Shown here: piece by piece, positions 1,563 to 8,731 of the stretch
Layout of the letters: the number at the start of each line of letters is the position of its first letter
Numbering within the stretch: the stretch's first letter is position 1
Assembly: GCF_030013595.1 (NCBI RefSeq)
Contig: NZ_CP122768.1
Length of the DNA stretch: 64,000 bases
Reading direction: 5' to 3' (one strand)
Origin: Escherichia coli
GTDB lineage: Bacteria; Pseudomonadota; Gammaproteobacteria; Enterobacterales; Enterobacteriaceae
Notes under the pieces: generated by a model
Told to the model about the DNA's origin: nothing
Database searches by the model: none
Seen by the model: only the letters and a program-made list of their open reading frames with translations
Position numbers and translations under genes: made by a program

Positions 1563-3617
1563 CTACGCCGTATAACACCATTCATGCCATGCCTGTAATC
1601 CACTAACGGAGCGCAAATACAACTGCAATGTATATTTTGTCGGCTCACCATTTCTGGAGAACAGAAACGCTCTGGAACCCAGCAGATCATGCAGCGTAAT
1701 GTTTTTATCCAGAGGACGTCCGTTTACATCAAGAGCGAGACAGCCTTTAGCGGGAAAAGGTAACTCAATGTCGATGGGGTCAGCCGCCAAATTAGGCAGA
1801 ACTTGTAATGTAATAAATGCCGGAGGTACCCCTTCCGCTTTAAGTTGTATCTCTGTTCGCCCCTCAGTACGCTTACGTGTAGCCTCCAATGTTTTATCTT
1901 TAAGTTTTGCTACACAAGGATGCTGTGTGGTGATTAAGATAGTGCCTTCATTTGCGTGCATTCCACCTTTTATCTCAATACTGAAATCAGCAGGCAAGAT
2001 ACCGATTTTGCGACGCAAGAGCGTTTCATTGTTACTATTACGGATAGAAAGATATTGAGCCCCCAGCATCTCTTGTATATGACATTGCTCAATTGAAATT
2101 CCGCTCAGGTAACGCGTTACATCAATGCTTTGAATATCCGGTAGTGTAGAAATGACTTTTGGTACACCAATAAATGTTTCATCTGGATGACAAACCCAGC
2201 TTGCACGCTTTCCATTTAGAGCAAACCTTCCGATGCTGATTTGTTCTCTTCCGGTGCGAATCCGATAAGTTTCATTTGCTGTAACTGTAACGTCCTGACA
2301 TCCCTTCACAGGTAGTGCTTTTAGTCCTAATACGTTTACTGCGCTCGATTGGCCATCAAAACCAGCAACATTGCTATTATCCCGAGGGAGTACAATCAGA
2401 ACATCGCTGCTTCGCACACTGCAAGAAGCCTGTCCCTGTAACAGCCATTGATCTGCATCAACGATGAAGGTTAACGGCACCTCACCAATGGCAATTTCAC
2501 TGTCATCAAGTTTAATGCTCCCAACAATCATCCCTCCAGCACGAGCCACTAATGACAAACCAGCCGATGGATTTTGCCTGACAAATCTCACTTCGCTTTT
2601 ACGTAATCGAACTGTTGCCTGTCTGTTTTCCAGGGAAGCATAGGCTGGCCCAAGGCCAGAGACTTCCTCACCATCTTCACAAATGGCAAGTTCAAAGCGC
2701 GTAGTTGACGGCTCGCTTGTTACAGGAAAGGAAACTTCGTCCGGAAGAGATACTATCACCCTAAGCTCATCTGGATGCTTTTCTGACCAATAGAATTGGC
2801 AACGCGTACTCTTATTTTTTTGTAGTCGAGGCTTAGCCTCTACAGAGGCTGCGCATAGCAGTCCATTCAAAAAATGCGTTCCTGTTTCATCATCTAACGG
2901 TATTGGAAACTCGCTTCGCCAGGTAGGGTGAACCTTCTCAAGCTGTTGTACTGGTTCTTTGTGATTTATTAGGTTGTGAGTAAGTACTAAGGAATTGAGG
3001 TTATCAGCCATATGACTGATAAGTTCTACAGAGGTATCTTCGCTAAAAACAGTTGGCAGCGCTGATTTTTCTATGACAGCTCTTGCCAGCGAAAGGGCAG
3101 AAAAACCTGACTGCTTTGCTTGCTCATATTGTCCAAGGATCCTGGAGAAAACAGCCAGAAAGCGACTGTCTGATTCTTTGAGTAGCCGGAAAGGTAAACC
3201 ACCTTCACTGAATAATGTTCCGAGAAAATTGCGTCGTTCAGATTCATAAAATCGAATTGGGCGCAGCCAGTAATCTTCCATCCCTTTCGGTACGATAGTA
3301 CCAAGCTCTGTGGCGGTGAATGAAATCCCTATTTTTTTATATATAGGGTCCCACGTCCATCCGCATTGCCGTTCATAATCCCTGCGGTACCACTCAGAGC
3401 AAAAAAGAACAAAACAGGCAGCAAAGTCCCTATTACATATATTAGATTGTGATTGACCGACCGCACGGAGTAGCTGCGTTAATTGGGTATATTCATCATT
3501 GGTTGCATGATATTCATAAAGAGGACGGCCATCCGGTTGTCTCAACCCTCTAAGATTCACAAAGTTACTTAGCCAGGAAGTACATTTTACCCATGAAATG
3601 TATTCTGATTGACCCAA
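1563..3617 (-). CDS. Uncharacterised 684-aa protein; first gene of the 3-gene operon, positionally equivalent to K-12 yjiT
   Basis: Long ORF next to yjiS with an AT-rich promoter region upstream (3618..4115); GC content visibly lower than neighbouring core genes; no recognisable catalytic motif. Confidence 0.7.
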   Translation of the reverse strand: MGQSEYISWVKCTSWLSNFVNLRGLRQPDGRPLYEYHATNDEYTQLTQLLRAVGQSQSNICNRDFAACFVLFCSEWYRRDYERQCGWTWDPIYKKIGISFTATELGTIVPKGMEDYWLRPIRFYESERRNFLGTLFSEGGLPFRLLKESDSRFLAVFSRILGQYEQAKQSGFSALSLARAVIEKSALPTVFSEDTSVELISHMADNLNSLVLTHNLINHKEPVQQLEKVHPTWRSEFPIPLDDETGTHFLNGLLCAASVEAKPRLQKNKSTRCQFYWSEKHPDELRVIVSLPDEVSFPVTSEPSTTRFELAICEDGEEVSGLGPAYASLENRQATVRLRKSEVRFVRQNPSAGLSLVARAGGMIVGSIKLDDSEIAIGEVPLTFIVDADQWLLQGQASCSVRSSDVLIVLPRDNSNVAGFDGQSSAVNVLGLKALPVKGCQDVTVTANETYRIRTGREQISIGRFALNGKRASWVCHPDETFIGVPKVISTLPDIQSIDVTRYLSGISIEQCHIQEMLGAQYLSIRNSNNETLLRRKIGILPADFSIEIKGGMHANEGTILITTQHPCVAKLKDKTLEATRKRTEGRTEIQLKAEGVPPAFITLQVLPNLAADPIDIELPFPAKGCLALDVNGRPLDKNITLHDLLGSRAFLFSRNGEPTKYTLQLYLRSVSGLQAWHEWCYTA

Positions 3618-4456: not shown

Positions 4457-5869
4457 ATGACGCGTTATCAACATCTGGCAACTCTGCTTGCCGAGCGGAT
4501 TGAGCAAGGGCTGTATCGTCACGGGGAGAAATTGCCGTCGGTGCGCAGCTTAAGTCAGGAGCACGGCGTCAGCATCAGCACCGTGCAGCAGGCGTATCAG
4601 ACGCTGGAGACGATGAAGCTCATCACTCCGCAGCCGCGTTCGGGGTATTTTGTCGCACAACGTAAAGCCCAGCCGCCAGTGCCGCCGATGACGCGTCCGG
4701 TGCAGCGCCCGGTGGAAATTACCCAGTGGGATCAGGTGCTGGATATGCTGGAGGCGCATAGCGACAGTTCCATTGTTCCGTTAAGCAAAAGCACGCCGGA
4801 TGTCGAAACGCCCAGCCTGAAACCGCTCTGGCGGGAGCTAAGCCGGGTAGTGCAGCATAATCTGCAAACCGTTCTCGGTTATGACTTGTTAGCCGGTCAG
4901 CGGGTATTGCGCGAGCAGATTGCCCGCCTGATGCTCGACAGCGGCTCGGTAGTCACCGCCGATGACATCATCATTACCAGCGGCTGCCATAACTCGATGT
5001 CGCTGGCGTTAATGGCGGTGTGTAAACCGGGCGATATTGTCGCGGTCGAATCACCCTGTTATTACGGTTCGATGCAGATGCTGCGCGGCATGGGCGTGAA
5101 AGTGATTGAAATCCCAACCGATCCAGAAACTGGCATCAGCGTTGAAGCGCTGGAACTGGCGCTGGAACAGTGGCCGATTAAAGGCATCATTCTGGTGCCA
5201 AACTGTAATAATCCGCTGGGATTTATTATGCCGGACGCGCGCAAACGGGCCGTTCTCTCTCTCGCTCAGCGTCATGATATTGTGATTTTTGAAGATGATG
5301 TCTATGGCGAACTGGCAACGGAGTATCCGCGCCCGCGGACCATTCATTCCTGGGATATCGACGGGCGAGTGCTGTTGTGCAGCTCGTTCAGTAAAAGTAT
5401 TGCACCTGGCCTGCGTGTGGGCTGGGTCGCGCCGGGACGTTATCACGATAAACTGATGCATATGAAATACGCCATCAGCAGCTTTAATGTACCGTCCACG
5501 CAAATGGCGGCGGCAACGTTTGTGCTGGAAGGTCACTATCATCGCCATATCCGGCGGATGCGGCAGACTTATCAGCGCAATTTGGCGCTTTATACCTGCT
5601 GGATACGGGAATATTTTCCCTGCGAAATCTGTATTACGCGCCCGAAAGGCGGATTTTTACTGTGGATAGAATTGCCTGAACAGGTCGATATGGTCTGCGT
5701 CGCGCGGCAGCTGTGCCGCATGAAAATCCAGGTGGCGGCAGGCTCGATTTTCTCAGCTTCCGGCAAATACCGTAATTGTCTGCGCATCAACTGCGCTTTG
5801 CCGCTCAGCGAAACCTATCGCGAAGCACTGAAGCAAATTGGCGAGGCAGTGTATCGGGCAATGGAATGA
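4457..5869 (+). CDS. yjiR: MocR/GntR-family transcriptional regulator with aminotransferase-like domain
   Basis: 470-aa ORF; N-terminal GntR winged-helix (SVRSLSQEHGVSISTVQQAYQTLE) plus fold-type-I PLP domain. Confidence 0.9.
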   Translation: MTRYQHLATLLAERIEQGLYRHGEKLPSVRSLSQEHGVSISTVQQAYQTLETMKLITPQPRSGYFVAQRKAQPPVPPMTRPVQRPVEITQWDQVLDMLEAHSDSSIVPLSKSTPDVETPSLKPLWRELSRVVQHNLQTVLGYDLLAGQRVLREQIARLMLDSGSVVTADDIIITSGCHNSMSLALMAVCKPGDIVAVESPCYYGSMQMLRGMGVKVIEIPTDPETGISVEALELALEQWPIKGIILVPNCNNPLGFIMPDARKRAVLSLAQRHDIVIFEDDVYGELATEYPRPRTIHSWDIDGRVLLCSSFSKSIAPGLRVGWVAPGRYHDKLMHMKYAISSFNVPSTQMAAATFVLEGHYHRHIRRMRQTYQRNLALYTCWIREYFPCEICITRPKGGFLLWIELPEQVDMVCVARQLCRMKIQVAAGSIFSASGKYRNCLRINCALPLSETYREALKQIGEAVYRAME

Positions 5870-6111
5870 ATTCGAAATAGTGGCGAAGCGCCTGATTTAC
5901 TCTCACGAATCGCCTGTAACTCGTTTTATCTTTATAGCGACATCGCCACGTTCTGGCATGGCTCAGGCAAAGTGTGCTTCGTTCATGCCGGATGCGGCGT
6001 CAACGCCTTACCAGGTCTACAAAATCTTTAAAGTTCAATATATTGAATGGGTTATGTAGACTTGATAAGCGTAGCGCACCAGGCAGCTTTGCGTTTGTCA
6101 TAAGTCTCTGA

Positions 6112-7032
6112 TTAGTACTCGAGCCATGAATCGTGCTCACGGTCAGGCAGGGGCTGCACTAATGCCTGTATTTGCTCTGCCGAAAGTCCGGTAATCTTTT
6201 GTATCCATTCAGGATCTACCCCATTCTGCAAAAACAATCGAAGAATGCGCTGTTCCCCTTTTATACATCCATCATTATGAATTCGCTCTGCAATTGTCAT
6301 TATTCGCTCCCTGTGGTGTGGCATTCGCCTGGTAAGTTCGCTGATAAACTTCTTAAAACGCGCTTCATCGCCAGTCAGTAAAATGTAATTTAACAGCGCG
6401 GTTATCTGGCTGTCATTAGCGCACCCTGTAACCAATAATACTGCCAGTTGATCAATAAGCCCCATTAGATCGCGCTGGCGAATATGCTTTTGGATCAACT
6501 CCAACAGGGCGACTCTGCGGTGCTGCACAATCTCGTCGTCTGGCACGACAGTGACATCCACCAGCGGGAACGCTGCAGTATAAAGCTTCCGTGCAGTAGT
6601 CGGGTCGGCAAATTCGTCCAGCCAGCACAAAGACCAGGGATAAGGACTACGGCTACCGTGATAAAACAGCATCGGGATGACCAGCGGTAGCGGCCGGCGT
6701 TTATCATGCTCGATATGGCGCTGCATCACCGCCATGGAATATCGCATCAGGCGAAAGGCCATATGGATATCCTCGCGGCTCTGATGTTCAATCACTACGT
6801 AAATATAACCATCACCTTCACGGGTCTTTACCGACCACAGAATATCGGAGTGTAGCGCCCGCAATTTTTCATCGACGAAGCTGGCGGATTCCAGTTTTAA
6901 GCTGTCGAGATCGCACAGTTCACGTAAATCTTTGGGTAAGTGGATCTCCATAAAATCCCGCGCGGTGTCAGGGTGCGTGAGAAAGGACTTAAATAATGCG
7001 TCATGCGGCGTGCTGGTCGTGAAGTTTGTCAT
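6112..7032 (-). CDS. rpnD: Rpn-family recombination-promoting nuclease (YhgA-like, PD-(D/E)xK transposase_31)
   Basis: 306-aa ORF with the family N-terminus [11 protein letters not shown]; position between yjiR and mdtM matches K-12 yjiP/yjiQ (rpnD). Intact here. Confidence 0.75.
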
Positions 7033-7498
7033 GGCGATCCGTCACCTGTTGATAAGATGGCCCGACTTTAGCGACTAACAAAACCATTCTCACCCGGCAA
7101 TTTCTCGTTCCCCGAGGCACTTTCCAGGCTATTTTTATTCTTCTGCAAACGATACATTTTTCCGGAAACAGGCTCGCATTTTACATTTCCTGTACCCGGC
7201 AGATATTTCCCTTTCCACCGCACTCTTTTGATTAACCGCAAATTTTAATTACACTTAAGGTGTATATTTTCTATGCAACCCATCAATTCAAGAGGTGTAA
7301 TGTGCTGATGACTATTTGTAATCGTTATACATTCTGACCTGGAGTCAGAAGGTATTTCTCTGTCTGTGTGTTCACAGGCAGTGTGGTTGATTACATGAAA
7401 TTCAGTACATTTGTCCTTCTCGCCTGCCTTTAGTCATTACCGACGGTATTGAATTTCGTTTTCTCCATTGGGGTTCTCCGGACAAGGAGTTGTTTGTT

Positions 7499-8731
7499 AT
7501 GCCACGTTTTTTTGCTCGCCATGCCGCCACGCTGTTTTTCCCGATGGCGTTGATTTTGTATGACTTTGCCGCGTACCTGTCGACGGATCGGATCCAGCCA
7601 GGGATCATTAATGTGGTCCGTGATTTTAATGCCGATGTCAGTCTGGCCCCTGCTGCCGTCAGTCTCTATCTTGCTGGCGGTATGGCGTTACAGTGGCTGC
7701 TGGGGCCGCTTTCCGACAGAATTGGCCGCAGGCCGGTGCTGATTACCGGGGCGTTAATTTTTACCCTTGCCTGCGCCGCGACAATGTTCACCACGTCAAT
7801 GACACAATTTCTTATCGCGCGTGCAATTCAGGGCACCAGTATCTGTTTTATTGCCACCGTTGGTTATGTCACGGTGCAGGAGGCGTTCGGACAGACAAAA
7901 GGGATCAAGTTGATGGCGATTATCACCTCCATCGTACTGATTGCGCCGATTATCGGCCCGCTTTCCGGCGCAGCTCTGATGCACTTTGTGCACTGGAAAG
8001 TCCTTTTTGCCATCATTGCGGTTATGGGTTTTATCTCATTTGTTGGCTTACTGCTGGCGATGCCAGAGACGGTGAAGCACGGCGCGGTTCCATTTAGCGC
8101 CAAAAGCGTCTTGCGCGATTTTCGTAATGTCTTTTGCAATCGGCTGTTCCTCTTTGGCGCAGCAACCATCTCTTTAAGCTATATCCCAATGATGAGCTGG
8201 GTGGCTGTCTCGCCGGTGATCCTGATTGACGCAGGCGGCTTAACGACCTCGCAGTTCGCCTGGACACAGGTTCCGGTGTTCGGCGCGGTGATTGTCGCGA
8301 ATGCCATCGTGGCGCGTTTCGTTAAAGATCCGACCGAACCGCGGTTTATGTGGCGTGCCGTACCCCTTCAACTGGTCGGCCTCGCGCTGTTGATTATCGG
8401 CAATCTGCTGTCGCCGCACGTCTGGCTGTGGTCGGTGCTGGGCACCAGTCTGTATGCTTTCGGGATTGGTTTGATTTTCCCGACCTTATTCCGCTTTACG
8501 CTGTTTTCCAATAACTTACCGAAAGGGACCGTCTCCGCATCGCTGAATATGGTGATCCTGATGGTGATGTCTGTCTCGGTCGAAATCGGCCGCTGGCTGT
8601 GGTTTAACGGCGGTCGCTTGCAGTTTCATCTGTTAGCCGTTGTGGCAGGCGTTATCGTCGTTTTCACCCTGGCCGGATTGCTTAATCGCGTGCGCCAACA
8701 TCAGGCTGCCGAGCTGGCGGAGGAGCGGTGA
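7499..8731 (+). CDS. mdtM: MFS multidrug efflux transporter MdtM
   Basis: 410-aa hydrophobic ORF (start chosen at MPRFF...); MFS signature and synteny. Confidence 0.9.

Follow-up and report, generated by a model that had tools for sequence, protein, structure and literature searches.

Does the Rpn-family gene located between yjiR and mdtM in this Escherichia coli strain encode an intact nuclease, at a locus that is annotated as two fragments, yjiP and yjiQ, in K-12? We investigated this question in a window of 64,000 nucleotides (the whole stretch of DNA analyzed), considering for rpnD the integrity of the open reading frame (ORF), family membership, catalytic residues, the internal start and ribosome-binding site, repeat polymorphism, purifying selection, and allele frequencies. 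An earlier note had described a single Rpn ORF of 306 aa between yjiR and mdtM, and both its coordinates and its length proved exact when checked against the ORF list and synteny. Indeed, rpnD forms one unbroken ATG-to-TAA ORF of 306 codons (Table 1), flanked by yjiR (4457..5869, plus strand) on one side and by mdtM (about 7499..8731, plus strand) on the other. The genes yjiS and yjiT are located upstream and yjiN and yjiM downstream, in an order identical to that of K-12, and the closest genome, that of pig isolate HCP5S3_I2, has the same gene order as the window; synteny around rpnD is common to K-12 and many other E. coli strains. RefSeq entry WP_024230320.1 annotates a near-identical gene, and since its sole nucleotide difference from the window rpnD is synonymous, the encoded protein is the same. 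Strain HCP5S3_I2 shares this identical protein and the flanking genes, but it carries an IS3 element between yjiS and yjiR that is absent from the window. Position and top identity to K-12 rpnD assign the predicted product to the RpnD orthologue group, rather than to RpnA, RpnB, RpnC, or RpnE.

Table 1. Features of rpnD and of its predicted products in the window
Feature	Coordinates	Strand	Basis or remark
rpnD CDS, product RpnD-L (306 aa)	6112..7032	-	ORF list, PF04754, TIGR01784
Codon D11, conserved acidic residue	7000..7002	-	Invariant; RpnA-D11A inactive (PMC5350276)
Codon D63, catalytic Asp of the PD motif	6844..6846	-	Invariant; RpnA-D63A dead in vivo and in vitro (PMC5350276)
Codons E82-H83-Q84, ExQ version of (D/E)xK	6781..6789	-	Invariant "IEHQS"; RpnA-E82A and Q84K inactive (PMC5350276)
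Codon R94, conserved Arg	6751..6753	-	Invariant; RpnA-R94A without recombination phenotype (PMC5350276)
Codon 104, CAG (Gln); amber TAG in K-12	6721..6723	-	DNA alignment, K-12 translation, 30-mer counts
Codons 164-167, PDDE, outside the nuclease core	6532..6543	-	Invariant; RpnA-D165A hyperactive (PMC5350276)
Candidate internal promoter for a short transcript: ATGACA, 18-nt spacer, TG-TAAATT	6387..6416	-	Approximately 87 nt 5' of the internal ATG
Shine-Dalgarno-like AGGGAG, 6 nt 5' of the internal ATG	6307..6312	-	Sequence reading
Nested in-frame ORF RpnD-S, 62 aa from M245, presumed intragenic antitoxin	6112..6300	-	Alignment of M245 to RpnA M244
Repeat insertion junction, codons 257/258	6261..6262	-	Window has the zero-insert allele; orthologues carry 1, 2, or 3 units

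Alignment with the K-12 copy (b4584; repaired version "yjiPc" in Kingston et al. 2015/2017) showed that the two genes are collinear over 921 nt with zero indels and are alike in their yjiR-rpnD-mdtM locus and in a tail without repeat units. Nucleotide identity was about 92-93% and amino acid identity 94%, the approximately 20 amino acid substitutions being concentrated in the last 62 residues. Both the DNA alignment and the translation of the K-12 gene revealed a difference at codon 104, which is CAG in the window and the amber codon TAG in K-12, and this single nonsense substitution explains the yjiP/yjiQ split. The PGAP annotation labels the K-12 copy an Rpn-family pseudogene with an "internal stop," the RefSeq record of MG1655 also lists rpnD as a pseudogene, and in a published table of genes rpnD has the synonyms yjiP and yjiQ and is assigned two UniProt entries. 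Thus, the statement in the earlier note that the K-12 locus is annotated as two fragments was borne out, and the K-12 gene is not an equally intact one.

The frequencies of the two alleles were determined with a 30-mer centered on the codon-104 site, by megablast requiring an exact 28-base word, in 5,426 complete E. coli genomes. The CAG version matched 3,445 and the TAG version 339 of these genomes; among the 30 TAG matches listed, almost all were named K-12 derivatives or laboratory strains (MG1655, DH1, DH5a, J53, EMG2, and ER strains). These counts bear on whether the K-12 "split" might be an annotation or sequencing artifact with no real difference behind it, a reading for which we found no support and to which we attach practically no credence. 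The TAG 30-mer occurs in independently sequenced genomes, and Kingston et al. 2015 had to synthesize a repaired K-12 yjiP to obtain activity (PMC4498929); together with the codon-104 alignment, this refutes the artifact. We had also considered an amber suppressor as the source of active K-12 RpnD in Kingston et al. 2017 and rejected it, since the repaired gene had been synthesized in the 2015 paper.

The nonsense allele being real, we inspected the annotation of 21 E. coli genomes besides that of the window and found the rpnD CDS intact in 17 of them. The four others were K-12 with its internal stop, an O157:H7 strain, strain 600055, and one genome in which rpnD was lost beside an IS1 remnant. 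The O157:H7 gene is frameshifted by a 37-nt insertion (36 + 1) inside the region of the four-residue repeats, and that of strain 600055 is interrupted at gene position about 457 by a 125-bp insertion, which we take from its appearance to be an ERIC-type repeat; these two inactivations are independent of each other. Since the gene is intact in most of the inspected genomes and CAG outnumbers TAG, intact rpnD is the norm of the species, with occasional independent losses. K-12 is the exception, and the intact state is not special to the genome studied here. This difference is already known, as is the protein of the window through its RefSeq entry: Kingston et al. 2015 (PMC4498929) reported that a complete YjiP is encoded by most E. 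coli, so that the K-12 difference was published in 2015.

Family membership was assessed with profile searches. The window protein matched PF04754 (Transposase_31, YhgA-like) with an E value of 1.1e-86 and 290 bits (cutoff, 21) over residues 8-210, covering profile positions 1-202 of 203, and it reached 159.9 bits against the NCBIfam Rpn family TIGR01784 (cutoff, 52.1). RpnD-L is thus predicted to consist of a PD-(D/E)XK-type nuclease domain (Transposase_31/YhgA-like, residues 8-210) and a variable tail at the C terminus. The NCBIfam equivalogs for RpnA and for an ISNCY transposase both aligned, and both remained under their cutoffs, a result to be expected of a paralogue. In the alignment with K-12 RpnD and the paralogues that the earlier note had called for, identity was 94% to RpnD and 48-63% to RpnA, RpnB, RpnC, and RpnE. 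The catalytic residues, whose loss would have spoken against a nuclease, were all retained: the family-specific PD-(D/E)XK set (D11, D63, E82-x-Q84, and R94) is complete at verified positions, D165 of the PDDE motif is present too, and none of the six residues varies when the protein is aligned with K-12 RpnA, RpnB, RpnC, and RpnE. The Pfam match and this alignment settle the assignment of the predicted protein to the Rpn/YhgA-like family (PF04754). Three residues, A197, C256, and V300, were not seen in 9 aligned orthologues. At residue 203 the window protein has G where the 9 orthologues have E, and G is also found in the paralogues RpnA, RpnB, RpnC, and RpnE.

Structure and defense-system searches were less informative. 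AlphaFold2, run on an alignment of 9 sequences, gave a low-confidence model (mean pLDDT, 52.8), whose predicted elements (H34-39, E40-47, E64-70, E76-84, H91-109, E117-124) follow an order that fits the core of the PD-(D/E)XK alpha-beta-beta-beta-alpha-beta fold. A Foldseek search of this low-confidence model against the PDB yielded no match at an E value of ≤0.001, and a phmmer search of the full protein against PDB sequences yielded none at an E value of ≤0.01, the latter because the tail of the RpnA-S crystal structure has diverged too far for phmmer. PADLOC v2 returned no match for the long or the short rpnD product, the Rpn family evidently being absent from its 2023 library.

The family name Transposase_31 and older "putative transposase" labels point to another identity, that of a mobile-element transposase. 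The NCBIfam model NF007418, "ISNCY family transposase," indeed aligned with an E value of 9e-118, but its score of 392.8 bits lies below the 583-bit cutoff. Moreover, we searched for terminal inverted repeats and flanking direct repeats around rpnD and found none, and the gene occupies a fixed, single-copy chromosomal site in approximately 4,700 genomes (median, one place per genome). Zhong et al. likewise described rpn genes as lacking inverted repeats, target-site duplications, or evidence of autonomous transposition (PMC10400941). We therefore consider a transposase highly improbable and discarded this identity on the grounds of the absent repeats, the fixed single-copy site, and the ISNCY score.

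To return to the nuclease, selection on rpnD was estimated by the Nei-Gojobori method from comparisons of the window gene with those of K-12, UTI89, and strain 1002W03. Over codons 1-244, comprising the nuclease domain, dN/dS was 0.06-0.13 at a dS of 0.17-0.26, the synonymous divergence from K-12 in this domain being 0.26. Over codons 245-306, the C-terminal tail, dN/dS was 0.7-0.8 at a dS of 0.05-0.11. The first values indicate strong purifying selection on the nuclease domain, whose function has been preserved over a long divergence time, and the second indicate that the tail is evolving almost freely or under diversifying pressure. The low dN/dS of the nuclease domain therefore speaks for a full-length protein that functions, not for a gene in decay. 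It also bears on the idea that rpnD, intact as it is, might be physiologically inert, being rarely expressed or permanently inhibited by an excess of its small product RpnD-S, with no phenotype relative to K-12. The only full-length Rpn proteins detected in MG1655 are RpnB, RpnC, and RpnE, and the small proteins are abundant (PMC10400941), which fits inertness, although the failure to detect RpnD-L in that strain is expected from the amber codon. The independent natural inactivations (O157:H7 frameshift, 125-bp insertion in 600055, IS1-adjacent deletion) also suggest that loss of the gene is tolerated. However, both the long-term selection on the full-length sequence at such synonymous divergence and the predominance of intact copies among the sampled genomes speak against an inert gene, which we regard as unlikely.

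The locus also stands out by its divergence from MG1655. In 300-nt bins, identity drops to 91-94% between positions 5700 and 7500, a trough that covers rpnD and both of its spacers, and the flanking bins are mostly 95-100% identical. A segment with ≥99% identity over 5870-7490 was found in only 4 of the 5,426 genomes, and the rpnD allele of the window is thus rare. Effective recombination is known to be high around hsd and the restriction island, and this may be the cause of the trough. We also considered that the rare allele, with its zero-repeat helix and its A197, C256, and V300 residues, might differ from others in toxin-antitoxin affinity or in phage specificity, the trough then reflecting long-term balancing or diversifying selection, not hitchhiking, at the edge of a restriction/defense island; we deem this quite improbable.

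The tail coincides with a second, nested reading frame. The ATG of M245 is located at positions 6298-6300, and M245-T246 is invariant across the paralogues and aligned with M244 of RpnA, an internal start that was confirmed by experiment (PMC10400941). Together with the Shine-Dalgarno-like element, this provides the window rpnD with a putative in-frame internal start and ribosome-binding site. The predicted product, RpnD-S, showed a weak, subthreshold match to DUF4351 (E = 0.09). For K-12, published Ribo-RET data show peaks at internal start codons in frame in 5/5 rpn genes. All 5 of the tagged small Rpn proteins were detected in MG1655, and internal transcription starts were reported in all K-12 rpn genes (PMC10400941). 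In the region of the window gene, we found 5 sigma-70-like sites compared with 2.6 ± 1.6 expected from shuffled sequences, a difference that was not significant; hence, the internal promoter is no more than a candidate.

The orthologues differ in length (306, 310, 314, and 318 aa, from genes of 921, 933, 945, and 957 nt), and their alignment showed that 0-3 four-residue units (LGRE; LGME-KGKE; LGRE-RGRK-EGKV) are inserted approximately 12-13 residues after M245. The zero-insert form is common to the window, K-12, and UTI89, and the 314-aa form is the most frequent one in the sampled genomes. Zhong et al. 2023 described a hypervariable four-residue repeat 8-20 residues after the RpnS start (PMC10400941), and the rpnD polymorphism, judged from the alignment, is this repeat. 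The 37-nt insertion in the O157:H7 gene suggests error-prone repeat expansion.

Taken together, the gene in the window is very probably a wild-type, intact rpnD that encodes two products, RpnD-L and the nested RpnD-S, as a gene-within-a-gene toxin-antitoxin pair with a likely antiphage role. For this allele we infer, by analogy with published Rpn systems, that it is expressed, that its long product is an active nuclease and its short product an antitoxin, and that it may serve against phages. K-12 yjiP with its stop repaired was toxic, induced the SOS response, and raised RecA-independent recombination (PMC4498929; PMC5350276), and RpnA is a Mg2+-dependent, Ca2+-stimulated DNA endonuclease in vitro (PMC5350276). 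Deletion of rpnA-D in K-12 left basal recombination unchanged (PMC5350276), although rpnD was already broken in that background. Zhong et al. 2023 (PMC10400941) reported an internal start in each K-12 rpn gene, giving rise to a small C-terminal RpnS that binds and neutralizes the toxic full-length nuclease RpnL, as shown for RpnA, RpnB, and RpnP2; plasmid-borne RpnP2 protected against T-even phages, antiphage activity having been demonstrated for RpnP2 only. The Rpn proteins are thus currently viewed as an intragenic toxin-antitoxin/antiphage system, not as a dedicated recombination enzyme or a transposase (PMC10400941). The suggestion of the earlier note that an intact copy could retain nuclease activity is therefore plausible, since all residues that RpnA needs are present and repaired K-12 RpnD was active.

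By analogy with RpnA, RpnB, and RpnP2, RpnD-L would be a toxic, divalent-cation-dependent DNA endonuclease that is largely sequence nonspecific. Its overproduction would cause DNA breaks, SOS induction, and death of recA cells, and the raised RecA-independent replacement recombination would be a by-product of DNA breakage; effects of this kind were demonstrated in vivo for repaired K-12 RpnD and in vitro for RpnA (PMC4498929; PMC5350276). RpnD-S, made in excess from M245, would bind RpnD-L via the shared helical C-terminal domain and hold the nuclease inactive until some signal, possibly tied to phage infection, frees it; antiphage defense would be the likely role of the pair. The amber codon at position 104, a lesion confined to the K-12 lineage, removes the toxin.

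Compared with RpnA (YhgA), the characterized exemplar of the family, RpnD of the window shows approximately 58-60% identity over the collinear domain and shares its key residues and the internal Met. However, it is a paralogue at another locus, and its C-terminal extension is 13 residues longer, with a different tail sequence. RpnP2-LS (Zhong et al. 2023) belongs to the same family and has the same gene-within-a-gene layout and the hypervariable helix of four-residue repeats; in contrast to plasmid-borne RpnP2 with its anti-T-even activity, RpnD is chromosomal. K-12 keeps the coding sequence of the small antitoxin, whose product was detected in MG1655 (PMC10400941), but cannot make the full-length toxin, whereas wild strains such as that of the window carry the genes for a nuclease toxin and a nested antitoxin. 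Work on RpnD function (recombination, DNA damage, phage defense) therefore needs a repaired or wild allele. Annotation pipelines and readers that start from K-12 should be prepared to find rpnD intact in most E. coli. The finding matters little by itself and confirms K-12 as the odd one out at rpnD.

Several further features were observed in the neighborhood. In the spacer between yjiR and rpnD, at approximately 5985-6085, we noted two paired palindromic units of REP-like type (GCCGGATGCGGCGT... and ...GATAAGCGTAGCGCACCAGGC), which K-12 has in a diverged form; the pair probably represents a BIME-type element located downstream of the convergent yjiR and rpnD genes. The spacer between rpnD and mdtM contains, upstream of mdtM, a mini-ORF (7302-7337, plus strand; MTICNRYTF) with a conserved counterpart in K-12, the small protein YtiE (b4823, VLMTICNRYTF). 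A yjiT-like ORF of 684 aa (1563-3617, minus strand) runs beyond approximately position 2109, where homology to K-12 stops; K-12 yjiT itself carries the PGAP flag "missing C-terminus." In the closest genomes a DEAD/DEAH-box helicase gene lies next upstream, and this region looks like the border of a variable restriction/defense island. A Pfam search of the 684-aa product found no domain. In UTI89 and 1002W03, mdtM is absent and yjiN directly follows rpnD, yjiR is replaced or truncated, and GmrSD/DUF262 or type I restriction genes adjoin rpnD. Hence, the surroundings of the gene also vary among E. coli strains.
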